Shown one piece after another: positions 14,687-53,628 of a stretch of DNA of 64,000 nucleotides; position 1 is the stretch's first letter; every line of letters starts with the position of its first letter. Position numbers and translations under genes: made by a program. The notes beneath the pieces are model-generated. The model was not told where the DNA came from. It ran no database searches and saw nothing but the letters and a program-made list of their open reading frames with translations. Origin of the DNA: Candidatus Nomurabacteria bacterium RIFCSPHIGHO2_02_40_30 (GTDB lineage: Bacteria > Patescibacteriota > Minisyncoccia > Phycocordibacterales > UBA9973); contig MFTV01000016.1 of assembly GCA_001785445.1 (NCBI GenBank), positions 159,859-223,858 of the forward strand, written 5' to 3'.

Positions 14687-14802
14687 CCGTTAGAAGCCGC
14701 GGTCGCAGTTTAATATATAATATGTTAATAGAAAATATAAAATTTAATAACTTAATCAAGCATAGTCTCGGTCTGATGACCGCGACCTGCTTCTAACGGG
14801 AT
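14687..14802. repeat. 116-bp element with GC-rich terminal inverted repeats and an AT-rich core, separating the two VirB4 ORFs
   Basis: tcccgttagaagc (left end) and gcttctaacggga (right end) are a perfect 13-bp inverted repeat, extended by imperfect GC-rich subterminal repeats (cgcggtcgcag / gaccgcgacc); the core contains a TATAAT-like box. Confidence 0.5.
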
Positions 14803-31535: not shown

Positions 31536-31808
31536 ATGAATAATGCAGTTATAAATTTTAATACAGATGCTAAACTTAAAAGCGAGGCGAAACAAGTCCT
31601 AGACGAGATGGGACTAAATTTCTCTATTGCCTTAAATGCTTATTTAAGGAAACTAGTTGTAGAAAAAAGGATAGAGTTTACTACACCAGAGATACCCAAT
31701 GCTCGTTTAAGAAAAGCGATAAGAGAAGGGCGCAAAGAGTATGCCACTGGAAAGATGAAAGTCTATAAAACTCACGAAGAATTGGAGAAGCATCTCCTGT
31801 CTTTATGA
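31536..31808 (+). CDS. dinJ: Type II antitoxin, DinJ/RelB family
   Basis: INFNTDAKLKSEAKQVLDEMGLNFSIALNAYLRKLV matches the DinJ N-terminus; overlaps the downstream toxin by 4 nt. Confidence 0.7.
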   Translation: MNNAVINFNTDAKLKSEAKQVLDEMGLNFSIALNAYLRKLVVEKRIEFTTPEIPNARLRKAIREGRKEYATGKMKVYKTHEELEKHLLSL

Positions 31809-32068
31809 TTGATATATTAACTAGTAAAAAATACGATAAATCTTTCAAAAAGAAAGATAAATTTGTGCAACAGAAAGCTCTTGAGCGAATAAGACTTTTT
31901 AGAGAAGACCCCTTTAATGCCTTATTAGATAATCACAAGTTACATGGAGAATATGAAGGGTGCAACAGCATAAATATTACTGGGGATTTTCGGGCAATTT
32001 TTGAATATATTACTAAAAATAAAGTAGTCTTTTACGACATAGGCACCCATCCGGAATTATATCGATAA
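31805..32068 (+). CDS. yafQ: Type II toxin, RelE/YafQ family mRNA interferase
   Basis: 87 aa; HKLHGEYEGCNSINITGDFRAIFEY...VFYDIGTHPELY matches the YafQ/RelE C-terminal pattern. Confidence 0.7.
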   Translation: MIDILTSKKYDKSFKKKDKFVQQKALERIRLFREDPFNALLDNHKLHGEYEGCNSINITGDFRAIFEYITKNKVVFYDIGTHPELYR

Positions 32069-32186: not shown

Positions 32187-32495
32187 TTATTGAAGACTTT
32201 CGGAGATTCTTTTTTTCAATTGCCCAAGTGCCTTACCATCTTTCTTTAACATATATTCTCTTGTCCTAGCGTCATCCTCACTCTTACAAGCTTCATAATA
32301 TCGAATTTCAAATGGTCTTCTAGCTTTAGTTGAACGATTAAGTCCCTTGTTATGTTCCGAAAGTCTTCGCTTCAGGTCATTGGTTGAGCCTATATATAGT
32401 TTGTCATCTTTTAAGCTTTTTAGAATATATACATAAAACATAATCATATTATAGGACCTGAAGCTATAAAACGAAAGGTGTGGGGGGTTATCCAC
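32187..32495 (-). CDS. Small GIY-YIG nuclease-domain protein (start probably at the internal MFYVYIL)
   Basis: FYVYILKSLKDDKLYIGSTNDLKRRLSEHN is the GIY-YIG signature; ~85-100 aa. Confidence 0.75.
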   Translation of the reverse strand: MDNPPHLSFYSFRSYNMIMFYVYILKSLKDDKLYIGSTNDLKRRLSEHNKGLNRSTKARRPFEIRYYEACKSEDDARTREYMLKKDGKALGQLKKRISESLQ

Positions 32496-33415: not shown

Positions 33416-33526
33416 CCAGAAGCCTTTTGCTTCTGGTTCATATCGTTTTTATATGTGCCGGAAGCAAAATGTCTTCTGGCATTTTTTATTGCCCAAAATT
33501 GATTTGGTGTATAACTTTTTATTGCA

Positions 33527-34282
33527 TTGCAGTATAGCAGGGTATATAATTGTTCTATATATATGATGACCCAGAATTCTAAAATAGGCCTAGGACTAGT
33601 TGCTGTTATTATTTTGGTCTTGATAGTTTTCTGGTACCCGAGTTATAAAGTTCAAAATATTCAAAATGAACAAAAAGATAAGTTAATTTTGGACGATAAA
33701 GTTTACAAGCTCAACAAGCTAGTGCTAGCTCACGAATGCTCTCAAGTTTTAGAAGAAGCTGAAGCGTATCTCTCAACAAATGCCGACGCCGAGCAAATTT
33801 GGAGCGCATTAGGAGCTTGCCAGTTTGACCTCGGAAAATTTAAAGATGCAAAAGATAGTTTTCAAAAAGTTCTTGCATTAGAACCCGAAAATGTTGCCGC
33901 CAAGAACTATTTAAAACAAATGGAATTTAAAACAGGTGAAATTGTGGTTACCGGCACGGAAACTCCTTTTGATAAGATAGAGTTCGAGTCGAGGATGGGA
34001 CTCAACTTTGATGAGATTTTGACTTTTGTAAAGGCCACCGAGAAACCTTCCAATATATTGGAGTATTTATTAGCAAGCTATACCACTACCAACAGCTTGG
34101 ACAACACAATTTTATTTTTGAAAGATGCTTTGAAAAAAGCCGGCATGAATTTTACTTTTTCTGGAGCCAAAACAGGCACCATTATTTCTTATGGGAATGA
34201 AAAAGAAAGAAAAATAATCATGCTTGAGAAGAAGAATTCTTTAGTAAAAGTGGAAATGAATTATCAAAAATTAACAAATTAA
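33527..34282 (+). CDS. Membrane-anchored TPR-repeat protein
   Basis: N-terminal TM ([17 protein letters not shown]); TPR-like helices ([36 protein letters not shown]). Confidence 0.5.
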
Positions 34283-37200
34283 TGAAAAACAAACATTACA
34301 CATTATTATTCGCAAGCATAATTATCTCTATTTTTTTTGGGGTAAACCTTGCCAATGCTTCCACTCTCAATGTCTCCGGCTGGGCAAACTCTGCTTGTAA
34401 TGCAAGCAACGGTACTTCTTTTTCCATTACCGAAGACAGGTCTTTTTATATTACTAATGCTTGGATCGGAGGCAATGGAGTATGGGATGATCAGATAGGA
34501 TTTTCCGGCACATTTAACGGAAATGTTGTCGTAAATACCAGCGCTGGTTGGTCAGGTGGATGTAGTGGTGATGCTCAAGCTGGAAGTGGCTACACTGATT
34601 TTTATCCTCTCTCTATGACTGGCTCAACGGACAACGATACTTTTACTTTTTCTCTTCTGGCTCTGCAAAAAAGAGATGAGATATCATCAAGTAATACCTT
34701 TCATGGAAGCATTGAATATAGCTACACAAAAAATCTCTGTAGTCCCGGGCAATATACTTTAAACAATGGATGTGTATGGGACACCGGAACGATTTCCGTT
34801 AGCGCAGGTGGTACCACTGTCACCAGTAGCAACGCTAGTCCCGGAGGGTCTGTATCATGCACCGCTCCTTGTAGCCCAGTAATTAGTTGGAATGTAACCA
34901 GTGGTTTGCCTAGTTCTGGTCAAGTTAGAAAAAATAATGCGGTTTGGAACAGCGGGAACAATTCTGGCAATGTGACAGACTCTGGGCTTGGCGTCGGAAC
35001 TTACTCATATGATTTATATATTCAAGATGGCCACGGAGATTATCAAGGAATTCAAGGTCCGACTGTAACAGTTGCCGATGTTCCTATTGTCCCTACCCCC
35101 ACAGCCACTATGTCTGTTTTAGTAACTAAATTTGACCTTACTCCGACTAAAAAAAGTGACACGGCTACTGTAAAAAATGAAAGTGCGACAAGTGGTGGAA
35201 GTTTTGGTGTTATATGTACTGTTCCAACAGCTTTTCCTGGTCTTACATCAAGTTCAATAGATTGTCCTGACTCAGAATCATTTACTGCCAACTCCAGCAA
35301 ATCTTTTTCTGTAACACTTGACTCTAATACTCCAACTACTCCTGGAACTTACACAGGAGTTATGAGGATAAAAGCTACTGGAGAAAATGGAACAATTGTT
35401 TCAGGTGATTCAAAGGATATTGCCATTAGTTACGTTGTGCCTACAGTCGTAACTCCTGTTCCCACTTGTAGCGCTGACCCCACGACTGTTTTGGTTGGAC
35501 AAAATACCACTTTGACTGGGAGAAGCGGTGACGGTAGCAATTATTCTTGGTCAGCTTCAGGTGGCAATTTCAGCTCCACTAGCGGCAAGACGGTTACCGT
35601 AAACTTTGGTTCCACAGGGCAGAAAAATATATCCGTGACCAGTGGAGGCTCCACGGGTGCTTGCGCAGTTACTGTCAGCGCTACACCTGTTATGTCGGGC
35701 ACCCTTACTCCGTCGTCAACCTCTTGCGAAATTTATTCTGGTGCTTCTACTTGTAACGTAACCTTAACTTGGAGCACAACTAATCCAGAAGCTACATCTG
35801 CTGTGACAGCTGCTGCTTCACCATATGCGCCTGCTGTTAATGTAAGTGGAAATTCCGGCTCCCAATCTTTTGCTGTTCCGTATAGTAGTCGAACTTTTTA
35901 TCTTTATAACAACGCTAAATCTCTCGTTCCCACTTCTCCAAATGGCACTGGGGTAACTGTTACTTCAAGCTGTGTGGCAGGAACCACTTGGACTAGTGGT
36001 GCTTGTATTACAACTACAGCGCCACCGTCGCCTACGTGTCCTTCTGGCCAAACAGGAACACCTCCAAATTGTACAACACCTCCAACTTCAGGTAGTGTAA
36101 CTCTTACGGCTAATCCTAACTCAGGACCTGCGCCATTAAACGGAGTATCTCTCCGCGCAGCCGTTGGCGACTCTGCAGGATGGAAATATTATTATTATTT
36201 CTTCTGTAATGCCCCAAATCCAGTAGCCGTTCCTCCGGGTGGTTCTAATCCTCCATTTAATAACGATGGTGGGTCTGTGACGTATACTTCAAGTACAACT
36301 GCCAACTCAAGCAATAACTGCAATTATTCTTCTGCTGGTACTTACACCGGCAGAGTAGCTGTTTTGAAATATCAAGGTTCAGACCCGTTTACGACCAACT
36401 ACTGGCAGAATTCTTCAAACTGGAGACAGGCAACTGCTGCAGTGACAGCTACCACTCCTGTTTCTCCTATCACCGTCTCTCTCACTGCCAATCCACCTTC
36501 TATGACTCTACCTACCAACTCTACTATTCTGACTTGGACAACCACCGGTAATCCGACAAGTTGTATAGCATCCAACGGTTGGAGTGGAGCCAAAACAGCT
36601 AGTGGTGGAACTGAAAACAGAACAGGTCTGACTGCTCAAACCTATACCTACAATATTACCTGTTCAAAGTCAGGAGTGCCTGATGTTATAGACACAGCGA
36701 CGGTGGTGGTTACTGCCCCTGTTATGTCCGGCACTCTTGCTCCCACTAATCCTCCCGGACTTTCTTCTTGTATTATCGCATCTGGAGCTTCCGCCTGTAA
36801 CATAAATTTTTCTTGGACTACCACTAACCCTGTGAGCACTTCTTCTGTTACTAGAAATCCATCTTCCGGTTTTAATCCACCTCTTCAAAATTCTGGCACT
36901 AATGTTCCTTTTCCTGTGCCATACAACACCGCCACTTTCTTTCTTTATAATAATAATACCGAACTTGCTCAAAGCGCTGTCACTGCCAGTTGCGTGTCCG
37001 GCACTACTTGGGATGGGAGTAAGTGTGCTGTACCGTTGCCAGCGGCTCCGTCTAACCTGCAAGCGAGCAACGCTATCTGTGGAGCTATCCGCCTGACTTG
37101 GCAGGATAATTCCAACAACGAAACTGGGTTTAGAATTTACCGTAGTCGAAGCCAAAGCTTCAGCATTGGTGGATACTATGCTACCGTTGGAGCCAATGTT

Positions 37201-40200
37201 ACGAGCTATACTGACCCAACCCCAATGCAATTTTCCAGCAACTATTACATGATTGCATCTTACAACGGGGTTGGGGAGAATTACAGCAATGCCGTTTCCA
37301 TAACTCCTACCGGCTGTATGTCCGGCTGGTTAGATCCATCTGTTAGTTGCACTATTTCGGCAGGACAAAATAGTTGTAACGCAAACCTGTCTTGGAACAT
37401 AAATAATCCGGAAAGCACCCCAACAGCTATTACAGCCAGCGGTATGACCAATATAAATGTTTCCAATTCTTTGTCCACTCCCCAGTCAGGTACTCAAGCC
37501 GTATCTGTGCCATACAACAGCAGAACATTCTATCTTTACAACAATTCTAAACCTCTTGCTACCAGTGCTGCCACTGCTGATTGTGCCAATAATACCACCT
37601 GGACTGACGGTAAATGTTTGCTTAATTCATACACCGTCACTGCCACTGCCGGTCCTGGGGGCTCTATTTCTCTTGCGCCAAGTTCATTAAACACAAACAC
37701 GATTTCTTCGTGTGGCGAGATTAAAACCCCGGGGAATTATACTTTAGACAGAAACATATCTTCTTCGGGTACCATGTGTCTGAATGTGCATGATGTTTCA
37801 AATGTGCATCTTAACTGCAACAACTATTCAATTACCGGATCAAATGTTTACAGTGGCATGGCGACAGTTTATTTCAAAAATGTAAATAATTTTTCTCTCG
37901 AATCATGTACAATCGTTGCTGGTGGGGGTAGTCCAGTATATATTGGAAACAGTACACAAGGCACCATCAGAAAAAATACAGTTGGGAAATATGCTATGCA
38001 GGTTTTTAATAGCTCCGACCTCACGATCAAAAATAATACTTTCGATGCATCTTATTCGCAATACTATACCAACGGAAGTATCATAGAAAATAACTCATTT
38101 AGTGTGGTCATAGGTCCATCAAGTTTGGGACGTTCTTCTTATCCGGGAGTTGTTGTTTCAGCCGGAGGCTTTAATAATCGAATTGTGAACAATAATATTG
38201 ATGGAAAAGCTAGGGGTGTACTCAGTGAAGAAATAGGAGCAGATGACGGCATTGTTCTTGACGATGAAAGAGATGATTTTGTTCAAAACAATATCATCAA
38301 AAACAATTGGGATTGCGGGATAGAAACTGTCGGATTTATCAGAAATACCATTATGAGTGGCAATACAATTTCCAATTCTGGTCTGTGCGGAATAGGCGCT
38401 TGGTACCGCAATAGTTGGAAGGGAAATATAATTTCCGACAATATAATCAGTGATGCTCCTAACATGTTTTACTTTTTTCGGGTTTTTGGATTACAACCCA
38501 ACGAAACTTACGTTTATTTTGTTGATAACGCATTTAGTGGAAATAAATTTTTAAATCCACGAATCTCAAGCTCTGCACTTTTTAATTTTAGTTTCTTTGA
38601 TTACCGTAATAGTGGAAAAACAATCAATCCGGAAAATCTAGTCCTTGGGAACAATCGGTTTAGTAACAATGACTTTGGTGTTACAAACATGAATCCACCA
38701 CAATTTTATCCTGCCTCCATGATCGTTGATGGAGGCGGTAATAGATGCAGTAGTATAAACAGTTTCGGTAACCCTCTAGCTTGTTCGGGATCCGTGGCAT
38801 TTTCTCCTACTCCTACTTCTATTTCAGCGCTTGCTATTTCTTCCATTTTTTCTCCCACTCCAGCCCTCGCCGCTTCCGTTTCTTCCAGTACTTCTCAAAA
38901 AGTAAACTACGGTGATAAAGCCACTTTTACTGTTACCCCAGACACGGGCTATTCCACATATTCTATTACTGGTTGTAATGGTTTATTATTTGGCGCCACT
39001 TACACTACTGAACCTATTACTGGCGATTGCGCTGTCTCAGCTACGTTCAACATTAATAAATACACCGTTACTACATCTGCAGGTCCCGGCGGTTCAATAT
39101 CTCCAGCTTCCAGATCAGTGGACCATGGTTTAACTACAACCTTTACTGTTACCCCTGACTCCGGTTATTCCATAGGTTCCGTCACCGGTTGCGACGGCTC
39201 AGGTACTGCTAATTATACAACCGGCCCTATTGTCAGTAACTGTATTGTTTCTGCAACCTTTTCATTTATTCCAGTTATGTCCGGCACTCTTGTTCCCACT
39301 GACCCTCCCGGACTTTCTTCTTGTGTAATTTCCGCGGGACAAAATAGTTGTAATATAAATCTGTCTTGGAGTGTAACAAACCATGAAGGAGCTGTGACAG
39401 CTATAACTGCCAACGGAATGGCCAATAGAAATTACTTCAATATATATTCAGGCACTGATTCTTTTACTGTTCCATACAATGATTTGGGTGTATACTTTTT
39501 CCTTTACAACAGCGGCAACAAACTTGCGGAAACAAAAGTTTCCACTGTCTGCGACACTGGCACTAACTGGGATGTCAATGTTAGTAAATGTGTTTCTCTG
39601 GCTGCTGATTTGACAGCTGGCGCTGTTACGCCAACAACTGCCACGGTTAATATATCGACTACATTCTCATCTCCTGTTTCCAATATTGGCAGTGTTTCTA
39701 CCGGAAACTCTTTCTTCAACTTCTTTCAAGTTGCTACTGCTATCAACGGAGGTGGTACTATCACTGACCTAGGAGCAACCAACATGGGAACTCTTAATGC
39801 CGGTTCACAGAGTACGAGTACGAAATCACACATTTTTTCTTCCACAGGGAACTATTCTATTCGTGTTTGCGCGGACAAGAGTTCGTCCGGAAATTCGGGG
39901 ACTATCACTGAATCAGACGAGAACAATAACTGCGGGATCTGGACAAATATCACGGTTACTAGCACCGCAGTGCCTGCGGGGGACATCTCCGCCACTTCTT
40001 GCGTTATCGCAAGTGGTGCGTCTACCTGTAATTCGTCAGTGACTTGGAGCACTCAAAATCTTACTGCTGGGGCTACGGAAGTTACCAGAAACAATCCAAA
40101 TGGCACTCATGTTTCTTTCAATACTTCTGGGACTAATGTAAATAATGCAGTCAACAATGGAGAAAGTATTTTCTACCTATATCATAATATTAGCGGGACT

Positions 40201-41172
40201 CCTACTGTTTTAGACTCTACAGAGATAAATGCTTCTTGTGATGTCGGTACGGTTTGGGACGGAAGTAAGTGTGCGCCGAGCGCACAGCCTTCTGGTTGGA
40301 TCAGGTGTAATGATTTAGACACTATATGTACTATCTCTTATAATTCTTCAGCCACCATTACTTGGTTTACTGCCAACACCAGTTCATGTACAGTCGCCCC
40401 TACAGGTTGGACTGGCACAGCAAGTCAAACAGGAAAATCAACTGGTGCTCTAACTGCCAATACGGCTTACGACTTAAGTTGTAATGGGATAGATGGTTCT
40501 AATTTCAGCAAACACCTTGATGTTGTCGTTGATGCTCCTCTGGTACCGATTGACGGGGGGTGGAGCAATTGGGGAAATTGCAGTGAAATCTGCGGAGGGG
40601 GTATACAAACTCGTTTTTGTAACAATCCGGCGCCGAATAACGGTGGCGCCATTTGCTCTGGTGATTCCGTTCAATTATGTAACGTTCAATCTTGCAGTGG
40701 TGGTCGCGCCAATGGTTTATGTGCACCTATCGCCGCGCCGACACACTATAACTGTTCAGTAGGAGGGACCTATGTTCCAGATGGAGGCGTTGACCGTGAC
40801 GACGGCACGACTGATACTTGGACTTGGACATGCAAAGGTAATGCTGCGAAAAATTCATTTTGTTCAGAGTCAAAGTCAGTTGCTACTTGCGAAGATACAG
40901 CAGCTGTTAATTTCGGAGGAGCTACTCCGTGCTCTTATGTTGTTATTGACGTACAACGTTGTGACGACCCATCTGCCAACAACAACGGCAATCCTGTACC
41001 TTGTACCTACGATAGTCCAAATATTTGCAACGACCCAGAGGCTAACAACCTTGGAGCCAGCGCCTCCTGCACATATACTTCTGGGAAAGTATGCCGTAAT
41101 CCATTTGCTAGCAATTACGGCAGAGCGCTTCCTTGTAAATATCAGAAAAAACCAAGCTTCATAGAAAATTAG
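34282..41172 (+). CDS. Giant secreted or cell-surface multidomain protein (2296 aa), putative adhesin
   Basis: Signal peptide; InlB-B-repeat-like YTVT(A/T)SAGPGGSIS modules; FN3-like [34 protein letters not shown]; PbH1 beta-helix repeats ([28 protein letters not shown]) at ~37.8-38.5 kb; five ~105-aa Cys-containing repeats (SGTL.P...C.I.SGASACN..LSW.TTNP...(V/F)PY(N/S)...FYLYNN...C..GT.WDGSKC, two of them more divergent); a thrombospondin type-1 repeat at ~40555-40700; 4x CxDPxAxNxGxxxxCxY C-terminal repeats. Confidence 0.75.
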
Positions 41173-41174
41173 CA

Positions 41175-41201
41175 AAAAATCCCCCAATTGGGGGATTTTT
41201 T
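41175..41201 (+). terminator. Intrinsic terminator after the giant gene
   Basis: aaaaaatccccc-aatt-gggggatttttt, perfect palindrome with flanking A- and T-tracts. Confidence 0.75.
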
Positions 41202-41216
41202 GCTATACTTAAGTGA

Positions 41217-42977
41217 ATGCAAATAAATGAAGCACAGTTTAAAAAGTTTGTTTTAGAGTCCGGTCTAGTAACGCGCTCTGATTTTGAGCTCGGAGTGAAA
41301 GAAGCGGAGGCAAAAAAGCAGAAAATCGGAGACGTTCTCTTATCTTCAGGCAAGATATCGGAAACTGATCTAAAACGCATGGAGGCTTTTGTTCTAGGAA
41401 TACCGTTTATCAGTTTAACTAGTCAGAAAATTGACTTTTCCGTATTATCTCTCATTCCTGAACCCATAGCGCATAACTACAACATTGTTGCCTACAAGAA
41501 AAATGAAGATAGTCTGGAGGTGGCCATGCTGGATGTCGATGACCTACCAGTCATTGATTTTATTAAAAAGCGTTCTGGGCTTAAAATTCTTCCTCGCCTT
41601 ACCGACACAGTCTCAATCAAGGCCGTACTTGTACAGTACAGGAAAAGTCTAAAGGCCGAATTTCAAAATATTATACAAAAAGAGTCTACAACACTCGGGG
41701 AAAATTCTTCTCCAGATGCCGAAAAAATGCCCGAGAAATCCGAGTCGGAGTTAAAGCAAATGGCGGAAGATTTACCGGTAGTAAAAATTGTCGACTCCTT
41801 GATTTTCCATGCAATTTTGCAAAATGCATCTGACATTCATATTGAGCCGGGGGAAAAGGAGCTCACAGTACGCTACAGGATAGACGGCATACTGCATGAT
41901 GCTATGGTGCTCGACAAAGCTGCTGGGGCTGGCATAACTGCCCGCATTAAAGTGTTGGCTAATTTAAAACTGGATGAAAAAAGATTACCGCAAGACGGCA
42001 GATTCAAGAAAGAACAAGATGGAGAGAAAATTTCTTTTCGTGTTTCCACCTTGCCTACTTTTTTCGGAGAAAAAACCGTGATGAGAATTTTAAAAGAAAA
42101 TAATCATGGGTTTTCGCTGGAAGCTCTTGGTTTCCATGGCGAAGGACTGGAGCGAATTCATGCTTCTCTAACTCAAAAGACGGGAATGGTGCTGGCCACT
42201 GGCCCTACTGGTAGCGGTAAGACCACCACACTCTATACCATGCTTGATATCTTAAACAAACCGGAGGTAAATATTTCAACCGTGGAAGACCCGATTGAAT
42301 ATCAAATGCCGAGAGTGAATCAAACCCAAGTAAAGCCAGAAATAGGGCTGACCTTCGCGAACGGATTGCGGTCACTTCTGCGCCAAGATCCGGACATAAT
42401 AATGGTGGGGGAGATACGAGATGGCGAGACAGCTGGGCTTGCTGTCAATGCTTCGCTTACAGGCCACTTAGTGCTTTCTACGATTCATACCAACTCCGCC
42501 GCCGGCGCCATTCCTCGATTAGTAGACATGGGAGTTGAGCCATTTTTAATCACAGCGACGGTAAAAACAATTATCGCCCAAAGATTAGTCCGTAGGTTGA
42601 CTCCCAGTAAAGAAAAATATTTCTTATCCCCGGCCGAGATAAAAAATCTTGCCAAAGTTGTTGAGCTGGAAAGAGTTTTGGGATTTTTAAAAACTGAAAA
42701 TATTATAGGCCCGAATGATACTTGGGACAAAATTCCTTTCTATAAACCGATTAAAACTAGTGAATTTGAAGATGGATATTCCAGCCGTACGGGCATGCAT
42801 GAAGTTTTAAAAGTTAGTCCTACCATTAAAGATATGATTATAGCTGGCAAGTCTCAAGATGACATAGAAATACAGGCTAAAAAAGAAGGTATGATGACCA
42901 TGCTCGAAGACGGAGTTTTCCAAGCAGTTTTAGGTGTAACTACTTTGGAGGAAGTATTTAGAGTTGTTTCCGAATAA
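41217..42977 (+). CDS. pilB: Type IV pilus assembly ATPase (GspE/PilB family)
   Basis: N-terminal GSPII_E_N-like domain; Walker A ATGPTGSGKTTTLYT; Asp box, Walker B (IIMVGEIRD) and His box (TIHTNSAAG). Confidence 0.9.
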   Translation: MQINEAQFKKFVLESGLVTRSDFELGVKEAEAKKQKIGDVLLSSGKISETDLKRMEAFVLGIPFISLTSQKIDFSVLSLIPEPIAHNYNIVAYKKNEDSLEVAMLDVDDLPVIDFIKKRSGLKILPRLTDTVSIKAVLVQYRKSLKAEFQNIIQKESTTLGENSSPDAEKMPEKSESELKQMAEDLPVVKIVDSLIFHAILQNASDIHIEPGEKELTVRYRIDGILHDAMVLDKAAGAGITARIKVLANLKLDEKRLPQDGRFKKEQDGEKISFRVSTLPTFFGEKTVMRILKENNHGFSLEALGFHGEGLERIHASLTQKTGMVLATGPTGSGKTTTLYTMLDILNKPEVNISTVEDPIEYQMPRVNQTQVKPEIGLTFANGLRSLLRQDPDIIMVGEIRDGETAGLAVNASLTGHLVLSTIHTNSAAGAIPRLVDMGVEPFLITATVKTIIAQRLVRRLTPSKEKYFLSPAEIKNLAKVVELERVLGFLKTENIIGPNDTWDKIPFYKPIKTSEFEDGYSSRTGMHEVLKVSPTIKDMIIAGKSQDDIEIQAKKEGMMTMLEDGVFQAVLGVTTLEEVFRVVSE

Positions 42978-43052: not shown

Positions 43053-44270
43053 ATGTTTTTCTCATACAAGGCAAAATCAAAGGCAGGGGATATAACAGAG
43101 GGAGTTTTGGAGGCGGCAGGTCGTCTGGCACTCGCGCGCGACCTGCGCGCGCGCGGTCTGATACCTTTGTCTGTTACCGAAGAAAACGTAAATTTTCTCA
43201 GCAAACTGTCGGCGCTCACAAATGTTTTTTCTAGAATCAGCGTTAACGAACAGATTGTTTTCACAAAAAATTTAAGTGGGATGCTGAAAGCTGGGCTTTC
43301 ACTTTTTCGGGCTTTATCAGTTTTAAAAAAACAGACAAAAAACGCTAAGATGGACAAGGTTCTGACTTCTCTATCCAATGACATAAATTCTGGAGAAACA
43401 TTATCTTCCGGACTTTTAAAATTCCCTGACATTTTTTCAAAACTTTTTGTATCCATGACCAAGGCTGGCGAGGAGTCCGGTAATTTAGATGGGGCGCTTT
43501 CCGATATCGGAATTAATTTGGAAAAATCGCATTCATTAACCAGAAAGATCAGAGGGGCGCTAATTTATCCCGGAGTGATTCTCTCCGCCATGGTGGTTAT
43601 CGGTGTTTTAATGTTTGCTTTCGTGGTGCCGACTCTCGCCAGCACCTTTAAAGAACTCGGTGTTGTTTTGCCCACTTCCACTCGTGTCCTTATTTTTCTA
43701 GGTAACTTTTTCTCCAACCACTTGATTCTAACCTTCATAATGATAATTGGCACAGCCTTGCTTTTGTATTTTCTTTTTATTTCTAAGTTTATGGCGAAAT
43801 ACATTGATTACACCGTTATTAGAATTCCAATTATCGGGAATTTAGCAAGGTCACTAAATACCGCCCGCACCGCCCGCACCATGTATTCTTTGCTGCTGGC
43901 GGGGGTTTCCATCACTCGGGCAGTAGAAATTACGCAAGACGTAGTGCAAAATATTTACTACAAGCAAGTTTTAAGTGAAGCTAAATTGGCAGTCGAAAAA
44001 GGAGCCCCATTTTCTCAAGCTTTTGAAAATAGTCAAAATCTTTATCCGGTAATGATGTCGGAGATGATCCAAGTCGGAGAAGAAACTGGAAAATTATCAG
44101 ATATGTTATTGCAAGTCGCTTTGTTTTATGAAGAGGAAATTGAAAATAAAACAAAGAACCTTTCGACGATCATCGAGCCAGTGCTCATGGTTGTCATTGG
44201 CGCTGGGGTCGGATTTTTCGCCATTTCCATGGTCTCGCCGCTATATTCAATTTTAGGCAGTATAAATTAA
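43053..44270 (+). CDS. pilC: Type IV pilus inner-membrane platform protein (GspF/PilC family)
   Basis: Two T2SS-F domains, 3-4 TM segments, 405 aa; synteny with pilB and the pilin genes. Confidence 0.9.
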   Translation: MFFSYKAKSKAGDITEGVLEAAGRLALARDLRARGLIPLSVTEENVNFLSKLSALTNVFSRISVNEQIVFTKNLSGMLKAGLSLFRALSVLKKQTKNAKMDKVLTSLSNDINSGETLSSGLLKFPDIFSKLFVSMTKAGEESGNLDGALSDIGINLEKSHSLTRKIRGALIYPGVILSAMVVIGVLMFAFVVPTLASTFKELGVVLPTSTRVLIFLGNFFSNHLILTFIMIIGTALLLYFLFISKFMAKYIDYTVIRIPIIGNLARSLNTARTARTMYSLLLAGVSITRAVEITQDVVQNIYYKQVLSEAKLAVEKGAPFSQAFENSQNLYPVMMSEMIQVGEETGKLSDMLLQVALFYEEEIENKTKNLSTIIEPVLMVVIGAGVGFFAISMVSPLYSILGSIN

Positions 44271-44732
44271 ATGATGAAAAACTTTTATCAAAAGGGGATA
44301 ACAATTATTGAACTACTGATAGTCATAGTCGTTATCGGCATAATGGCTTTAATTGTACTGCCGCAATTTTCATATATTAAAGAAAATCAAGTATTAAAAA
44401 ATGGAGTCAGTGACATTTTGTCATCCATAGATAAAGCTCGCGGACAAACTCTTTCCTCCCTCAATTCTTCAGAGTATGGAGTGCACTTCGAGTCCGATAA
44501 AGTTATAATATTTAAAGGCACAGTCTTTTCTGCTATTGCTCCGGACAATGAAAATATTGACCTTACTTCGCCGGCAACGATATCCGCCATTACACTTGGG
44601 GGAGGAGGCTCAGATATTTACTTCAATCGTCTTTCTGGAAGTCCTAGCGTTACTGGCACAGTAACTCTTTCTACTACAAATTATTCCAAAATTATTACGA
44701 TTTCAGCCACTGGGGTTGGGAGCTCAAACTAA
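44271..44732 (+). CDS. Type IV pilin (major pilin candidate)
   Basis: Prepilin class III N-terminus QKGITIIELLIVIVVIGIMA (G|xxxxE cleavage/methylation motif, hydrophobic alpha1). Confidence 0.75.
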   Translation: MMKNFYQKGITIIELLIVIVVIGIMALIVLPQFSYIKENQVLKNGVSDILSSIDKARGQTLSSLNSSEYGVHFESDKVIIFKGTVFSAIAPDNENIDLTSPATISAITLGGGGSDIYFNRLSGSPSVTGTVTLSTTNYSKIITISATGVGSSN

Positions 44733-45254
44733 ATGCTAAATTTTTTTAAAAAAAATAAAGCCTGCCCGCAATGCTTACAGCATAGCTGTTGCAGGCGGGG
44801 TTTCATGGTAATTGAGATACTTATCGTTGCATCTATTATTACTGTCTCGATTTTAGCAGCCATGGCAGTATCTCAAAAATCTATTTATGTCATGAGGCAA
44901 GCCTTTCACGCCACCCAAGCTGGCTTTTTGTTAGAAGAAGGAGCTGAAGCTGTCCGGATACTTCGCGATAATGCTTGGAGTAACATCTCTTCTCTCACCG
45001 CAGGGACAAATTACTATACCACTTTTTCAGGCGGGACTTGGACATTATCAGCCACAGCGAATACTGTGGGAATTTTTACCCGCACTGTGACTGTTGCAAG
45101 TGTCAGTAGAGATAATGTTACAAAAGACATAGTCACAAGTGGTGGGACGGATGACACAGGAACAAAATTAGTAACTGTAACTGTATTTTGGTCTGAAGCC
45201 GGCACAACTGTAACCAAGACTTTGAAATTTTATATAATAAATATTTTTTCTTAA
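44733..45254 (+). CDS. Minor pilin/pseudopilin
   Basis: RRGFMVIEILIVASIITVSIL prepilin-type N-terminal motif. Confidence 0.6.
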   Translation: MLNFFKKNKACPQCLQHSCCRRGFMVIEILIVASIITVSILAAMAVSQKSIYVMRQAFHATQAGFLLEEGAEAVRILRDNAWSNISSLTAGTNYYTTFSGGTWTLSATANTVGIFTRTVTVASVSRDNVTKDIVTSGGTDDTGTKLVTVTVFWSEAGTTVTKTLKFYIINIFS

Positions 45255-45260: not shown

Positions 45261-45770
45261 ATGAAAATTACTAAATTAAAAATTAAAAATTATAAAAAAG
45301 GTTATGCGATTCTGGAACTTCTTTTTTATATTGCTTTTTTTGCGATTCTTTCTTTAGTAGTTATTAACGCCATGATTGTCATGACTCGGTCTTTCAGAGA
45401 AACTTCCATTCAGGGCGAATTAATACAAAGCGGAGTTATTATGGAGCGTATCTCTAGGGAAGTAAGACAGGCTTACAACATTAGCTCAATTAGCGCCACT
45501 GATTTAAACCTTGATTCTACAGACAATGGTGGGGCAAATAAAACTGTAGAGTTCTTGCTTTCTGGTACAGATATACAGCTTTTAGAAAATGGAGTTCTTA
45601 CCGGAAATTTGAATACTCTCAATATCACAGTTACTGCTCTAACTTTTACCCAAATAACTACCACTAAAGGCAAGGCCGTGAAAATAGCTTTCACTGTCAG
45701 GTCGAGCAACGACAAATTAAATCGCACCCAAGATTTCTACGACACCATTGTGCTTAGGGGTATATATTGA
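45261..45770 (+). CDS. Minor pilin/pseudopilin
   Basis: KKGYAILELLFYIAFFAILSL prepilin-type N-terminal motif. Confidence 0.6.
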   Translation: MKITKLKIKNYKKGYAILELLFYIAFFAILSLVVINAMIVMTRSFRETSIQGELIQSGVIMERISREVRQAYNISSISATDLNLDSTDNGGANKTVEFLLSGTDIQLLENGVLTGNLNTLNITVTALTFTQITTTKGKAVKIAFTVRSSNDKLNRTQDFYDTIVLRGIY

Positions 45771-47521
45771 CCATGAGAAAATATTTTAAAAAAATAAAAA
45801 GAAATCGAGGGGCGGCCATGCTCATATCTGTTATCTTTTTTACGTTTATTTCTTTGGCGATAATTTCCGGACTTGTGGCGCCGGCAGTGCGTGAATTTAG
45901 AAATGCCAGTGTATATTTAAATTCTAAAAAATCATATTTCTTGGCCGAGTCCGGCAGTGAAGATGCGTTATACAGGATACTAAATAATATGGCAATAGGA
46001 GCTAGTGAAACAATTACTCTAGATTCCAACGATGCCACGACAGACATTACAGATATTAGTGGAAATACAAAACAAATTACATCGCTGGGGGATGTTTCAA
46101 ATTACCAAAGAAAAACCAGCCTGACATTATCCACTAACAACGGTGTTTCTTTTAATTACGGCATGCAAATTGGCAATGGCGGCTTAGTTATGTCTAATAG
46201 CGCCACAATCAACGGCAATGTGTACGTCAATGGCGACATTACCGGCTCTAATAGCGCCACAATCACTGGGACTGCTATGGCCGCTGACCGTACTGCGGAA
46301 ATTATTGACCAAGTTAATGACACTGGTACGCCGACAGACACAATTTTATTTGGCAATGCTACTAGTACCCAAGACGGCGCGCAAAGCTTTACCGTTGCTA
46401 GCTCTGATGTTATTACCCAAATTTCTTTGTATATCAAAAAAGTCGGCTCGCCAAGCAACGCTACCGTTCGAATTACTGCGGATTCAAGCGGAAAGCCTGC
46501 AACCAGTTCTCTTGCCACAGGAACGCTTTCAGCTTCGAGTGTGACGGGTTCTTACGGATGGGTAAATATTGCTTTATCACCAAACGTTACTCTTTCTACA
46601 AGCACAACTTACTGGCTGGTCATAGATGCCGGTGTTAATGCGTCAAATTATTATATTTGGGGAGCAAACAACGCGCAATATGCGGGTGGTTTGGGCAAGT
46701 TGGGGCAATATGGGACTACAACGTGGAATAATACTAGTCCTTCAGGGCTGGACGCTTTTTTCAAAGCTTATCTTGGAGGCGTAAACTCTACTATCAGCGG
46801 GATGACTATCGGTCAGTCTGGGGTTGGCAATGCTTCGGCACATATTGTGAATGATTCAACTATCGCTGGCAGTCTTTATTGTCAGACTGGCAGTGGGAAC
46901 AATAAAAGTTGTGATACTTCACAAACGGATCCAGCGCCTCTTAATTTCCCCATTTCTGACTCACAAGTACAATCGTGGAAAGATGATGCAGTTGCTGGCG
47001 GAACCCAGAGCGGAGATATAAATTTATCAGATAGCGAGACGCTTACTATTGGTCCTAAAAAAGTAGTTGGTAATTTATATGTGAGCAATAGCGGAATTTT
47101 AACAATCTCGGGTACGCTCTGGGTCACTGGCAATATTGTTTTATCAAACAGCGCCCAAGTTAAACTTTCTGGTTCTTATGGGTCGGGCAGTGGCATGATT
47201 ATTTCTGATGGTACAGTTTCTACTTCTAATTCCGCCACTTTTAGCGGTTCTGGAGTTTCTGGCAGTTATATGATGATGCTCACTACTTCCACATCGTCCT
47301 CGGCAATAAATGTCGCTAATAGCGCAGGCACAGTTATACTTGTTGCTCCGTATGGAACGATTTCATTTTCCAACACTGCCGGCGCCAAAGAAGCCATAGC
47401 TAAGACGATAAGCATGTCCAACAGCGCGACATTAACTTATGAGTCCGGCTTAATGAATGTGAATTTTGTGAGCGGTCCTTCTGGGAGCTGGGAAGTGCAA
47501 ACTTGGAAAGAAGACCAATAA
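45767..47521 (+). CDS. Large pilus-associated protein with a pilin-like N-terminal TM segment (PilX/tip-protein candidate)
   Basis: RNRGAAMLISVIFFTFISLAIISG hydrophobic N-terminus; Ser/Thr/Gly/Asn-rich repetitive beta-rich body; last gene of the pilin operon with a 4-nt overlap. Confidence 0.45.
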   Translation: MTMRKYFKKIKRNRGAAMLISVIFFTFISLAIISGLVAPAVREFRNASVYLNSKKSYFLAESGSEDALYRILNNMAIGASETITLDSNDATTDITDISGNTKQITSLGDVSNYQRKTSLTLSTNNGVSFNYGMQIGNGGLVMSNSATINGNVYVNGDITGSNSATITGTAMAADRTAEIIDQVNDTGTPTDTILFGNATSTQDGAQSFTVASSDVITQISLYIKKVGSPSNATVRITADSSGKPATSSLATGTLSASSVTGSYGWVNIALSPNVTLSTSTTYWLVIDAGVNASNYYIWGANNAQYAGGLGKLGQYGTTTWNNTSPSGLDAFFKAYLGGVNSTISGMTIGQSGVGNASAHIVNDSTIAGSLYCQTGSGNNKSCDTSQTDPAPLNFPISDSQVQSWKDDAVAGGTQSGDINLSDSETLTIGPKKVVGNLYVSNSGILTISGTLWVTGNIVLSNSAQVKLSGSYGSGSGMIISDGTVSTSNSATFSGSGVSGSYMMMLTTSTSSSAINVANSAGTVILVAPYGTISFSNTAGAKEAIAKTISMSNSATLTYESGLMNVNFVSGPSGSWEVQTWKEDQ

Positions 47522-50020: not shown

Positions 50021-51700
50021 ATGCAAAAGTATGGTGAATTACTGCGGACTCTTTTAGCAAAGAGAGGCATTACGGACGAGGCGCAAGCGGAGATTTTTCT
50101 GGAACCCGATTATCAAAGAGATTTGCATGACCCATTTTTAATGCGTGACATGGAGAAGGCTTGCGTTCGGCTCTTTGAAGCCATAGATAACAATGAAAAG
50201 ATAGTTATTTACGCTGATTATGATTGTGACGGCATTCCGGGAGCAGTAATATTACAAGATTTGTTTAGAGAAATAAAATATACGAACTACGAGGTCTATA
50301 TTCCACAGAGGAATTCCGAAGGCTACGGGCTCAACTTAGATGCTGTTAAAGATTTTGCAAATTCTAATGTGAAGTTAATAATAACCATTGATTTGGGGAT
50401 TACTGCTGTGGCTGAAGTAGCCCAAGCAGAAGTAGACGGCATAGATATAATAATTACCGACCATCACTTGCCTCGCCAAAGCGAGAGCAACGGCGGGCTT
50501 GCTTTCAATTTGCCACGCGCCTATGCTATTTTGAACCCAAAGGTAGATAATTACCCTGAAAAAATGCTCTGTGGCGCCGGAGTGATGTTTAAATTTGTGC
50601 AAGGATTTTTAAAAAAATATGGCGAATACTTCAAGGTAAAAGAAGGTGTAGAAAAATGGATGCTCGACATGGCTGGCGTTGCTACACTTTCCGACATGGT
50701 GCCACTTGTCGGTGAGAACAGGGCACTAGCTTATTTCGGCATGAAAGTTTTAAGAAAATCTCCGCGTCCTGGCTTGCAGAAACTTTTAGCAAAACTAAAC
50801 ATCGAGCAGAAATATCTTTCAGAAGATGACTTAGGCTTTATGGTAACTCCGAGGCTGAACGCCGCTTCACGCATGGATGACCCGATGCGAGCTTTTGAGT
50901 TACTTTCTACTGATGATGAAGTACAGGCTGAAGCGTTAGTGAAACATTTATCAAGAATAAATGATGAGAGAAAAAGTATTGTCACAGGAATCATGCGGGA
51001 TGTAAATAAGAATTTTGATAAGCGCCAAATGAATGAGGTAATAGTTATCGGCAATCCCGCTTGGCGTGTGGGGGTTCTGGGGCTAGTGGCAGGTAAAATT
51101 TGTGACGAATATCAAAAGCCTGTATTTGTGTGGGGCAAAGACGAGAATGAATGCATCAAGGGTTCTTGCCGTAGTGATGGCTCGGTGTCGGTAGTGGAGT
51201 TAATGACAGCTTCAAGCGAATCTTTCATTGATTTCGGTGGGCATGAGCTCGCAGGGGGGTTCACGGTTGAAAATGAAAAAATTCATTTCTTAGAAGAAGC
51301 TTTGTCTCTATCTTTTACAAAAGTGCAAAGACCTAAAAAAGAAAATGTAACAAGTTACGACATCAAATCTGACTTAAGCATAGTAAATATGAAAAATTGG
51401 CGAGAGATAGAAAAGCTTGTACCCTTCGGGCTCGCTAATCCAAAGCCTGTTTTTCTTTTTGAAGGTGTTAAGATAGAAAATATAAAAAAATTCGGCAAAA
51501 ATGGTTCGGGTGAGCATTTGGAAATTATTTTCTCTGATGTAAAAAAGAGTAAAGCTAAAGCTATCTCTTTTTTTTCTAATATAGACTCTTTTAAAAATAC
51601 TTTATCAGAAGGATTAAAGCTAAATTTACTGGCCACTTTTGACTTATCTCGCTTCAGGGGGAGAGAAGAGCTAAGACTTCGAATTATTGATATACTTTAG
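50021..51700 (+). CDS. recJ: Single-stranded-DNA-specific exonuclease RecJ
   Basis: DHH motifs (IYADYDCDGI, ITDHHLP), DHHA1 region; 559 aa. Confidence 0.85.
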   Translation: MQKYGELLRTLLAKRGITDEAQAEIFLEPDYQRDLHDPFLMRDMEKACVRLFEAIDNNEKIVIYADYDCDGIPGAVILQDLFREIKYTNYEVYIPQRNSEGYGLNLDAVKDFANSNVKLIITIDLGITAVAEVAQAEVDGIDIIITDHHLPRQSESNGGLAFNLPRAYAILNPKVDNYPEKMLCGAGVMFKFVQGFLKKYGEYFKVKEGVEKWMLDMAGVATLSDMVPLVGENRALAYFGMKVLRKSPRPGLQKLLAKLNIEQKYLSEDDLGFMVTPRLNAASRMDDPMRAFELLSTDDEVQAEALVKHLSRINDERKSIVTGIMRDVNKNFDKRQMNEVIVIGNPAWRVGVLGLVAGKICDEYQKPVFVWGKDENECIKGSCRSDGSVSVVELMTASSESFIDFGGHELAGGFTVENEKIHFLEEALSLSFTKVQRPKKENVTSYDIKSDLSIVNMKNWREIEKLVPFGLANPKPVFLFEGVKIENIKKFGKNGSGEHLEIIFSDVKKSKAKAISFFSNIDSFKNTLSEGLKLNLLATFDLSRFRGREELRLRIIDIL

Positions 51701-51702: not shown

Positions 51703-52179
51703 ATGCTAAAAAAGGAGATACACATATATACAGATGGAGCGGCGAGGGGGAATCCGGGGCCTGCCGGCTGGGGAGCAGTTTTCTTAGTGGGTACAAAGGT
51801 TTTTGAGATGGGCGGTAGGGCCGACCATGCTACCAACAACATTATGGAGCTTACGGCGCCAATAGAGACTCTCAAATATGTTAAAAAGCATAAAATAGAA
51901 GCCGAGATACTGTTTTTTGCCGATTCAAAATATGTGATAACAGGCATCAACGAGTGGATACATAATTGGCTGAAAAATAACTGGCGCACAGCCAACAAGA
52001 AGCCAGTATTAAATCAAGAGCTTTGGCAAGAACTTCATGCATTAAATCAAGAATTTAAAGCGAAATGGCATTACGTAAAAGGCCACAACGGCGACAAATG
52101 GAACGACCGAGCGGATGAAATAGCTACCAGCTTTGCCGACGATGCTCCGGTGGCTCTCAAGAAAAATAAATTATTTTGA
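51703..52179 (+). CDS. rnhA: Ribonuclease HI
   Basis: IYTDGAARGNPGPAGWGAV; NNIMELTAPIETL; ADSKYV; HYVKGHNGDKWNDRADEIA; ends in TGA abutting the comEC ATG. Confidence 0.85.
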   Translation: MLKKEIHIYTDGAARGNPGPAGWGAVFLVGTKVFEMGGRADHATNNIMELTAPIETLKYVKKHKIEAEILFFADSKYVITGINEWIHNWLKNNWRTANKKPVLNQELWQELHALNQEFKAKWHYVKGHNGDKWNDRADEIATSFADDAPVALKKNKLF

Positions 52180-53628
52180 ATGCGGGACAGGATTTTCTAC
52201 TCAATATGTTTTGGTTTTGTGCTTGGAGTACTGTGGGGTTCTTTTGTTTCTACAGATTTGTATTTGGTTTTCTTATTTGCTGAGATTGCTTTTGCGCTAT
52301 TTTTATTCTTTTCTTTAATTTCCCAAAATAGCTGGGGGATTATCGCAAGTATTTTTATTTTGACTTTTGTTTTTGGCTTATGGAGATTCAGCATAGCAGA
52401 CAGAGTTGCGCCAATTGTGGTTTCTATGCATGGCGAGATAGTGGATGAACCGACCATGGGAGAAAATAATCAAAAGTTGATAGTGCAAACCAAAGAAACT
52501 ATAATTTTAATTACTACTGATTTTGAAAATAATTATAAATACGGGGATATAATCAATTTTTCCGGTAAACTGGAAAAACCAGAAAACTTTATTACCGACC
52601 AAGGCAAAGAATTTGATTATATAAATTATTTAAGAAAAGATGGTATTTTTTATGTAATAAGTTTCCCCAAAGTAGAGATTATCTCACGAGGGAATGGTAA
52701 TTTTATTCAAGCTTTTTTATTTTCTGTTAAAGAGAAGTTTCTAGAAAAAATGAATCTGGCAATACAGACTCCAGAGAGTCTCTTGATGGGGGGTCTTATT
52801 TTGGGAGAAAAAGCTTCTTTTAGTGCCCCAATGAGGAAAAGTTTTGTTGATACCGGAACGATACATATAATAGCGCTCTCTGGCTATAATGTGACGATAG
52901 TGGCCGAATGGCTTATGAAGTTGTTTGCCCAAATACCCTATGCGTCCAAAAATCTTGGTATTGGTATAGGGATTTTCACAATCTTACTTTTCGTATTAAT
53001 GACAGGTGGCAGCTCCACAGCCATCCGGGCGGGGATTATGGCAGTTTTAGCATTAATTGCCCGTGCGACCGGCAGAAATTATGATGTCGCGCGGGCTCTC
53101 ATTCTGGCGGGGGTATTTATGATTTTACTCAATCCATTTGTGCTGGTGTATGACGTGTCTTTTCAGCTTTCTTTCATCGCTACAGTGGCGGTGATATTTT
53201 TTACACCAAAGATAGAAAAGTATTTTTTATGGGTGACGAAAAGTTTTGGTCTGCGAGACATTATTTCTGTTACCTGCGCCACATATATTTTCATCATGCC
53301 TTTTATTCTTTACAAAATGGGCAATCTTTCCATAGTAGCTCTGCCCGCTAATATTTTAATTCTTCCCCTTATTCCATTTACTATGTTCCTCGGTTTTCTC
53401 ACAAGTTTTGTAGGGCTTATTTCTTATGTACCTTCTGTGCCATTAGGCTATATTTCGTACTTATTTCTACACTACGAGCTTGGCGTTATAAATTTTTTCG
53501 CAAATATTCCTTTTGCCTCTCTTTCATTTCCTAATTTTCCATTTTTACTAACACTAGCTATCTACGCATATTTTATTTACGTGCTTTTCGGCAAAAGTGT
53601 TAAAAAAACTTTTGAAACAAATTTTTAA
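52180..53628 (+). CDS. comEC: DNA internalisation competence protein ComEC/Rec2, membrane channel portion (DUF4131 plus competence domain) without the C-terminal MBL domain
   Basis: Multiple TM helices; competence-domain motif LLMGGLILGEKASFSAPMRKSFVDTGTIHIIALSGYNVTIVAEWL. Confidence 0.75.
   Translation: MRDRIFYSICFGFVLGVLWGSFVSTDLYLVFLFAEIAFALFLFFSLISQNSWGIIASIFILTFVFGLWRFSIADRVAPIVVSMHGEIVDEPTMGENNQKLIVQTKETIILITTDFENNYKYGDIINFSGKLEKPENFITDQGKEFDYINYLRKDGIFYVISFPKVEIISRGNGNFIQAFLFSVKEKFLEKMNLAIQTPESLLMGGLILGEKASFSAPMRKSFVDTGTIHIIALSGYNVTIVAEWLMKLFAQIPYASKNLGIGIGIFTILLFVLMTGGSSTAIRAGIMAVLALIARATGRNYDVARALILAGVFMILLNPFVLVYDVSFQLSFIATVAVIFFTPKIEKYFLWVTKSFGLRDIISVTCATYIFIMPFILYKMGNLSIVALPANILILPLIPFTMFLGFLTSFVGLISYVPSVPLGYISYLFLHYELGVINFFANIPFASLSFPNFPFLLTLAIYAYFIYVLFGKSVKKTFETNF

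Follow-up and report, generated by a model that had tools for sequence, protein, structure and literature searches.

A secreted modular protein encoded next to the type IV pilus genes of a Nomurabacteria genome, a candidate pilus tip adhesin with a conserved C-terminal tail

The locus and its 2296-residue protein

A large fraction of bacterial diversity belongs to the Patescibacteria, most of which are thought to lead a life attached to other microbes; to our knowledge, how a host is selected and retained is known only for a few cultivated Saccharibacteria. We analysed a stretch of 64,000 nucleotides (nt) from Candidatus Nomurabacteria bacterium RIFCSPHIGHO2_02_40_30, an ultrasmall groundwater bacterium (assembly GCA_001785445.1, contig MFTV01000016.1, positions 159,859 to 223,858), hereafter the window, in which a gene for a 2296-residue secreted protein lies directly upstream of pilB, pilC and a set of pilin genes. 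The protein ends in a short tail that recurs across its family, and genes with this tail are tightly linked to pilB. We regard its proposed role, that of a tip adhesin on the type IV pilus, as an evenly balanced proposition.

The gene is a single uninterrupted open reading frame (ORF) on the forward strand (34282..41172), with an ATG start, no internal stop and no Ns, and takes up 10.8% of the window, in agreement with the initial annotation, which had estimated about 11%. The same product, residue for residue, occurs on at least 24 contigs (100 blocks in the index listing), from assemblies that include JGI 3300025323, GCA_001786145.1 and GCA_003488805.1. For Parcubacteria group bacterium GW2011_GWC, GenBank holds a version with residues 1-1612 under the name 'Cell wall surface anchor family protein, partial'; it is flagged as partial because it ends at the end of contig LBXY01000001.1 (locus L115), inside the InlB-repeat region, and its name is not supported, as LPXTG and other features of a wall anchor are missing from the protein. 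Although such a truncation might suggest a mis-assembled or decaying ORF joined across repeats, the chimera against which the initial annotation had advised a check, it coincides with the contig end, the identical full-length product comes from independent assemblies, the DNA repeats inside the gene (identity ≤90%, length ≤59 nt) are too diverged to mislead an assembler and an independent 2.6-kb metagenome contig (L084) spans the 3' end of the gene and the pilB junction, so that this artefact is already refuted and its likelihood negligible.

The features of the gene are, in order:

34282..41172 (+), whole gene of the 2296-residue secreted modular protein, from the sequence; identical product in other assemblies
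34282..34359 (+), Sec-type signal peptide, residues 1-26 (...NLANA then S), from the sequence; no class III prepilin leader
34360..35682 (+), N-terminal region, residues 27-467: an unassigned Cys-containing domain and Ig/PKD-like domains
35683..36012 (+), Cys-Ig repeat 1, residues 468-577
36715..37032 (+), Cys-Ig repeat 2, residues 812-917, the copy used for modelling
37033..37311 (+), FN3-like domain, residues 918-1010, under the Pfam threshold
37312..37623 (+), Cys-Ig repeat 3, residues 1011-1114
37693..38796 (+), right-handed parallel beta-helix, residues ~1138-1505
38869..39264 (+), two divergent InlB B-repeat (Flg_new_2) domains, residues ~1530-1661, Pfam
39268..39597 (+), Cys-Ig repeat 4, residues 1663-1772
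39604..39933 (+), CARDB domain, residues 1775-1884, Pfam
39958..40278 (+), Cys-Ig repeat 5, residues 1893-1999, the most divergent copy
40558..40695 (+), thrombospondin type 1 repeat, residues 2093-2138, Pfam TSP_1 and PDB match
40699..40881 (+), small Cys-rich module, residues 2140-2200 (...HYNC...WTWTC...C)
40888..41142 (+), four tandem CxDPxAxNxG....C.Y repeats of 22-24 residues, residues 2203-2287
41143..41169 (+), conserved extreme C-terminal tail, from family comparison

The protein contains 74 cysteines (counted from the sequence) and has a Sec signal peptide but no other anchor, be it LPXTG, a C-terminal transmembrane segment or a pilin leader. In 160 relatives, too, neither LPXTG nor a C-terminal hydrophobic segment was detected, and a class III (prepilin) leader with a G-[FM]-T-L-I-E-type motif was absent from all of 177. 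With no class III leader and no LPXTG among these 177 relatives, pilin fusion and sortase anchoring were rejected. The N-terminal region (residues 27-467) gave only weak PKD and fn3_3 hints and is common to two to four of the collected relatives; it is probably distal. PDB sequence searches with this region and with the beta-helix returned no match.

Most modules listed in the initial annotation are borne out. Pfam places Beta_helix (PF13229) above its gathering score at residues 1159-1306 and recognizes the InlB-like repeats as two copies of Flg_new_2 (PF18998, divergent InlB B-repeat; 27.5 bits for a cut-off of 23.6), a domain shared with 48 relatives in the collected set. The four C-terminal Cys repeats are likewise present, with units beginning at residues 2203, 2227, 2249 and 2271; they have no Pfam match and occur in nine other collected proteins. 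The FN3 domain holds up in part: the fn3 profile (PF00041) is covered nearly in full (positions 2-81 of 84, E = 0.0035), but the score of 18 bits stays under the cut-off of 25. Three features had been missed, namely CARDB (PF07705, 30.6 bits for a cut-off of 22.7), the thrombospondin type 1 repeat and the conserved tail. The thrombospondin repeat scores 25.3 bits with TSP_1 (PF00090, cut-off 21.6), matches the corresponding repeat of thrombospondin-1 in the PDB at E = 1.3e-16 and is found in 57 relatives of the family set. It belongs to a C-terminal stretch of 300 residues made up of an Ig-like domain, this repeat and the Cys-rich repeats. The small Cys-rich module (HYxC...WxWxC...C), for which there is no Pfam model, recurs in six collected proteins and is the last domain before the tail in many relatives.

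A second recurrent Ig-like module (..TLTWTT.G.PTSC.AS.GWSG.K...G.....L....YTY.ITC..) occupies residues 576-812 (36007-36717) and 1998-2092 (40273-40557). It has no Pfam match and, besides its two copies here, was found in 14-18 collected relatives; a module resembling it precedes the tail as last domain in many of them.

An unnamed Ig-like domain family in Patescibacteria

The five repeats of about 105 residues described in the initial annotation, with the motifs quoted there, are present as described: they are 40-50% identical pairwise and share four invariant cysteines. We refer to them as Cys-Ig. None of the five copies matches Pfam at E ≤ 0.01 or any family in NCBIfam, and against PDB sequences only weak matches to antibody VH domains were obtained (E ≥ 0.028). 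The AlphaFold2 model of repeat 2, with a pLDDT (predicted local distance difference test) of 95.3, is an Ig-like, seven-stranded, two-sheet beta-sandwich. The positions of the invariant cysteines on the strands lead us to infer two local disulfides, one between C1 and C2, across the first hairpin, and one between C3 and C4, closing a small C-terminal hairpin.

The claim that this repeat is a novel domain therefore stands in the sense that no characterised family in Pfam, NCBIfam or the PDB accounts for it, but not in the sense of uniqueness: the sequence family is new, whereas the fold is an old one. A word-indexed protein search with the repeat profile returned 17 short fragments only, and the exhaustive search of representatives was the informative one. 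With the five-copy profile, 1113 proteins among 1.84 billion cluster representatives were recovered at E ≤ 1e-3, and 728 at E ≤ 1e-10; they come mostly from Patescibacteria and carry up to 12 copies per protein. A scan of species-representative genomes with a narrower alignment (A3, with the peptide RTFYLYNN as its pattern), and thus biased towards close relatives, yielded 46 loci encoding the domain with this peptide. Nearly all belong to Nomurabacteria, Paceibacterota or other Patescibacteria; single cases from Verrucomicrobiae, Acidobacteriota and Thermoanaerobaculia have ORFs that are fragmentary or ambiguous as to tail or pilus linkage.

A beta-helix absent from the other collected family members

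Residues ~1138-1505 form a genuine right-handed beta-helix of the pectin-lyase fold, as indicated by both the profile match and a parallel beta-helix structure. Its fold neighbours are polysaccharide epimerases, lyases, hydrolases, phage tailspikes and the PfbA adhesin, and in this comparison the non-enzymes NosD and PfbA score as well as the enzymes. The segment from residue 1113 to 1530 has 52 homologues with ~30-44% identity, most of them stand-alone proteins of 450-650 residues annotated as 'right-handed parallel beta-helix repeat' from Patescibacteria and one Woesearchaeota archaeon. The motifs GADDGI (D1321, D1322) and WDCGIE (D1344, E1348) are near-invariant and place four acidic residues on adjacent coils. 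As sequence motifs they would fit glycan binding and glycan cleavage alike, the two not being distinguished, and no catalytic-site match was established between this protein and the tailspike depolymerases, lyases or epimerases that share the pectin-lyase fold (AlgE4, K1 lyase, GH110, phi29 gp12). The beta-helix is absent from all other collected family members; it is a cargo particular to this organism's version of the protein.

A conserved C-terminal tail

Proteins of the family end in K-K-[KR]-P-x-F-I-E-[ND]-COOH, and the consensus over the last ~9-10 residues and just before them is V-K-V-K-K-P-I-F-I-E-N; the protein in the window ends in QKKPSFIEN. Glutamate occupies position -2 in 113 of 159 Cys-Ig representatives (clustered at ≤50% identity), against a background frequency of 2% for this residue. 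In related genomes, 22 of the 27 genes directly upstream of pilB encode glutamate or aspartate at this position, and most of them end in K-K-x-P-x-F-I-E-[ND]. The tail has no hydrophobic segment, no known sorting motif and no match in NCBIfam or Pfam, and the 2296-residue protein is the only tail-bearing ORF in the window.

What precedes the tail varies. At least three unrelated last domains were found in front of it, an Ig-like domain, the small Cys-rich WxWxC module and the CxDPxAxN repeats, and the tail thus behaves as a portable element. The family proteins encoded upstream of pilB range from 268 to 2929 residues and align over only 17-49% of the protein in the window, at 33-45% identity, while the neighbouring PilB proteins are 76-88% identical to that of the window. 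The pilus locus is otherwise conserved, and this protein is the part of it that evolves fast. In the literature that could be searched, we found no description of the Cys-Ig domain, of the tail or of a PilY1-like donor in Patescibacteria. What appears to be new here is the unnamed Ig-like family, the family-wide C-terminal signature and its near-obligatory position before pilB; a giant modular surface adhesin is, as a type, ordinary.

Linkage of tail-bearing genes to pilB

The initial annotation had placed the gene immediately 5' of pilB, pilC and the pilins, and this is the arrangement in the window:

33563..34282 (+), membrane-anchored tetratricopeptide repeat (TPR) protein, 239 residues from ATG, Pfam TPR_1/TPR_2
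41170..41205 (+), intrinsic-terminator-like palindromic hairpin, 16 bp followed by a T-run, 11 nt before pilB
41217..42977 (+), PilB extension ATPase (T2SSE and MshEN), Pfam
43053..44270 (+), PilC platform protein (T2SSF), Pfam
44271..44732 (+), pilin (...QKG, ITIIE; Glu5), Pfam N_methyl; major pilin or PilH-like
44733..45254 (+), minor pilin p2 (..RRG, FMVIE; Glu5), in the PilI/PilV/GspI position
45261..45770 (+), minor pilin p3 (..KKG, YAILE; Glu5), in the PilJ/PilW/GspJ position
45767..47521 (+), p584, a 584-residue pilin-like protein without Glu5 (..NRG, AAMLI), in the PilK/PilX/GspK-like position

The order of the four pilin genes is that of the PilH/I/J/K tip set (FimU/PilV/W/X, GspH/I/J/K), with the apical K subunit last, and is kept in more than 20 loci. 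The C-terminus of p584 (..F.SGPSGGWxIxSW[KG]E[VST][EQK]-COOH) is strongly conserved in 22 orthologues (L002-L110); a PDB search with the single p584 sequence gave no match.

In 27 of the 46 genome loci, pilB-pilC-pilins follow the domain-bearing gene directly and on its strand. Selection by domain could bias such a count, and this bias was removed by scanning metagenome DNA for sequence encoding KKPxFIE[ND] followed by a stop, with no other criterion. Sixty-five matches were obtained, 35 of which terminate ORFs of at least 100 residues, and 31 of these have at least 400 nt of sequence downstream. pilB starts 23-204 nt downstream, on the same strand, in 27 of these 31 (21 distinct sequences); in the other four, the next gene encodes a tandem surface protein with a signal peptide, or a single gene intervenes. 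Most of the longer ORFs selected in this manner carry one to five Cys-Ig domains.

Tail-bearing genes also occur in tandem upstream of pilB, at 4852-7920 and 8018-10702 in locus L018 and at 6367-9627 and 9620-12781 in L008, and as unlinked paralogues. In contig CAZADR010000002.1, for example, the unlinked paralogue L040 has the same last 22 residues as L039 (...TCDGVSSSATLIVKKKPIFIED). These tandem and unlinked copies look like spare or alternative heads for one pilus.

Two observations on individual loci may be added. In L114 (GCA_003488805.1, DNKI01000005.1), no pilB was called between the adhesin and pilC genes (9891-11627), although the locus is otherwise identical; the gap is ~1.7 kb and the pilC call is only 336 residues long, and a frameshift, an assembly problem or gene decay are possible. 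Several metagenome-assembled genomes labelled 'uncultured Candidatus Saccharibacteria bacterium' (L002, L006, L014, L022 and others) have the same operon, with PilB 77-88% identical to that of the window; the label may be generic or wrong.

A candidate tip adhesin docking by its tail

In PilC/PilY1, the last ~10 residues add a beta-strand to PilK, according to modelling, genetics and biochemistry (Ellison et al., PNAS 2026; PMC13533445). Both retention at the tip and assembly of the pilus require this strand, which is in part sufficient for the pilus to function, and MshQ, an unrelated large protein, is predicted to donate the same strand (PMC13533445). GspK, ComGG and CpaL/TadG provide it in cis (PMC13533445). 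Strand addition gives stable retention under load and is not used by cargo of the type II secretion system (T2SS) (PMC13533445).

By analogy with these systems, we propose that the 2296-residue protein serves this Paceibacteria type IV pilus as its tip adhesin, a non-homologous analogue of PilC/PilY1 that docks by its tail; we put this at roughly even chances. The proposal of a donor in trans draws on a Sec-exported, large and disulfide-rich protein, a variable body, an invariant C-terminus and a PilK-like subunit without Glu5 encoded alongside. On this model, a Parcubacteria/Paceibacteria (Patescibacteria) bacterium would export by the Sec route a modular surface protein rich in disulfides, whose body of Ig-like spacers (the five Cys-Ig and the PKD-, FN3-, CARDB- and InlB-B-type domains) would bear glycan-directed modules, among them the beta-helix with its conserved acidic residues, the thrombospondin type 1 repeat and small Cys-knots. 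This body would be the variable, host-recognising part, rebuilt through domain shuffling even among close relatives, and the invariant tail, V-x-V-K-K-P-x-F-I-E-N-COOH, would be a docking beta-strand for the minor-pilin complex at the pilus tip. The likeliest acceptor would be p584, PilK/PilX-like and without Glu5, whose sheet would be completed in trans as with PilC/PilY1. By extending and retracting, the pilus could then bring a head that binds or cuts glycans into contact with a host cell and draw the epibiont onto that cell. Such a role is consistent with cultivated Saccharibacteria, which bind their hosts by type IV pili, with glycans implicated (PMC11623550). The initial annotation had suggested a host-attachment adhesin working with the pilus; the conserved position upstream of pilB and the PilC/PilY1-type C-terminal peptide strengthen this suggestion considerably. 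The data show how the protein is built, the folds of two of its modules, the family-wide tail and the close linkage of that tail to pilB, whereas surface display, glycan specificity and pilus docking are what we infer.

The likeness to PilC/PilY1 (Neisseria PilC1/2, Pseudomonas and Acinetobacter PilY1) extends to several properties. Both kinds of protein are large (1000-3500 residues), Sec-exported and disulfide-rich, and their adhesive N-terminal part varies; the genes of both accompany pilus genes and a PilI-J-K-type set of minor pilins, and paralogues can be unlinked. The one docking element that PilC/PilY1 strictly need is their last ~10 residues (PMC13533445), for which the conserved tail is the candidate counterpart here. 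In contrast, the protein in the window lacks the C-terminal beta-propeller (PF05567-type) and any sequence similarity to PilC/PilY1, and it would therefore be an analogue rather than a member of that family. Its gene lies upstream of pilB instead of after pilX, its tail follows a strong consensus (K-K-P-x-F-I-E-N) and its host is one of the Patescibacteria, assumed to be monoderm like the cultivated relatives. MshQ of the Vibrio MSHA pilus is likewise a large non-PilY1 protein from a pilus cluster, whose C-terminus AlphaFold predicts to be donated to the PilK homologue MshP; it differs in domain content, in a gene located downstream of the minor pilins and in its diderm organism.

Several points weigh against tail docking at the pilus tip, which rests on analogy. 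No PilY1 or Neisseria_PilC match was obtained at E ≤ 1 across the whole protein. The assignment of the minor pilins to I, J and K rests on order, size and Glu5, and PDB profile searches with p2 and p3 recognized only the N-terminal pilin helix. Like the adhesin tail, the C-terminus of p584 ends in aromatic-[K/G]-E-x-x, and this protein resembles CpaL/TadG, GspK and ComGG in its pilin-like N-terminus without Glu5, its large inserted domain and its conserved extreme C-terminus; if it acts as they do, p584 may itself donate the strand in cis, leaving no vacancy for one in trans, and the adhesin tail would need another site. A terminator-like site separates the 2296-residue gene from pilB. No pil gene lies within the flanks of 19 of the 46 genome loci, and the unlinked tail-bearing paralogues L001, L040 and L046 have no pilus genes nearby. 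Finally, the linked loci belong to one clade and were picked via the domain or the motif, and the counts are shares of such genes, not of pilB clusters.

A broader and more tentative proposal, which we hold possible but somewhat short of even, is that the K-K-P-x-F-I-E-N tail is a portable plug by which host-recognition proteins, interchangeable and quickly shuffled, would be mounted on the PilK-like subunit at the tip of the type IV pilus in Paceibacteria. Ultrasmall epibionts would then have a host-range cassette system, in which a single conserved pilus takes many exchangeable heads, with spares kept unlinked or in tandem. If so, the licensing of pilus assembly by a beta-strand in trans would reach Patescibacteria, with a donor unrelated to PilY1.

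Should the tail dock on the PilK-like subunit, the recently established strand-addition mechanism of PilC/PilY1 would also operate in a distant phylum, there with a donor that is not homologous, and host-range determinants would be readable directly from metagenomes. The nine-residue C-terminal signature, the fixed position upstream of pilB and the unnamed Ig-like domain offer three searchable handles on a candidate host-recognition protein of uncultivated Parcubacteria/Paceibacteria. Regardless of docking, family definitions are warranted for the Cys-Ig domain, which occurs in more than 1100 clusters, for the CxDPxAxN repeat and for the small Cys-rich module that precedes the tail.

Retention in the envelope or secretion as alternatives

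The strongest competitor, which we nevertheless consider unlikely, is an adhesin retained in the envelope. The tail would then serve Paceibacteria surface proteins in general as a signal for retention or sorting, either by binding non-covalently to the wall or the S-layer or by being recognized by a processing enzyme, and the linkage to pilB would reflect only co-regulation or inherited gene order. The tail-bearing paralogues away from pilus genes, the terminator before pilB and the strand that p584 may provide for itself all suit this explanation, as does the size of the family, with its 1113 clusters containing the Cys-Ig domain. Moreover, the pilB-linked loci all fall within a single, rather narrow clade (PilB 68-100% identical), and synteny may be partly inherited. 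However, the tail contains neither a hydrophobic segment nor a recognized sorting motif or family match, and substrates of a general sorting system are normally scattered, whereas 27 of the 31 motif-selected genes abut pilB and the rest lie in the same upstream array. The gene order has also been kept while the gene content was replaced wholesale, which argues for selection on position.

An exoprotein dependent on the pilus is less probable still. Here, the pilus machine would work in the manner of a type II secretion pseudopilus or of the TCP/CFA-III pili: it would load the protein via its terminal peptide and release it, mainly as a secreted polysaccharide-degrading enzyme directed against host envelopes. 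TcpF and CofJ, which are secreted by type IVb pili and dock on a minor pilin via a terminal peptide, are a precedent, and the absence of an anchor, the linkage of the tail to pilB, the conserved acidic residues of the beta-helix and the many enzymes among its fold neighbours agree with this view. Yet the beta-helix is missing from every other collected member, so catalysis is not the common function of the family, and such long rows of Ig-like spacers typically form stalks that keep a binding head clear of a surface. Stalks of the LapA/SiiE type and PfbA of Streptococcus pneumoniae likewise combine long chains of Ig-like spacers with a binding head, but these are anchored by retention modules of the type I secretion system or by LPXTG, and the protein in the window has neither. 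In addition, PilY1-type strand addition gives stable retention, and T2SS cargo does without it.

The TPR gene and other neighbours

The stop codon of the TPR gene overlaps the start of the 2296-residue gene (TAATG at 34280-34284), and because of this overlap the two are probably co-transcribed. The description of the gene as terminator-bounded is thus right for its 3' end, where the hairpin at 41170-41205 lies, but not for its 5' end, since the nearest terminator-like site on that side (33455-33482) is upstream of the TPR gene. The same TPR gene call is present in L112-L115. As a conserved receptor for the C-terminal peptide, the TPR protein was considered and rejected, no homologue having been found in 111 loci even at E ≤ 10.

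At 3-6 kb downstream of the pilus cluster lie genes for RecJ (50021-51700), RNase H (51703-52179) and ComEC (Competence and DUF4131, 52180-53628), followed by a protein of the metallo-beta-lactamase fold (54331-55200). With ComEC nearby, the pilus may also serve DNA uptake. The interval from nusA to the TPR-adhesin unit encodes a RelB/YafQ toxin-antitoxin pair and an ORF with a GIY-YIG domain (31536-32068 on the forward strand, 32187-32495 on the reverse), with assignments taken from the precomputed gene calls of L112-L115. Further upstream, the region 6552-16687 contains ORFs of 983 and 949 residues and several smaller ones, all without a Pfam match, and then a TraG/VirB4-like P-loop ATPase (14801-16687); this region may represent a Patescibacteria type IV secretion or conjugation-like system.

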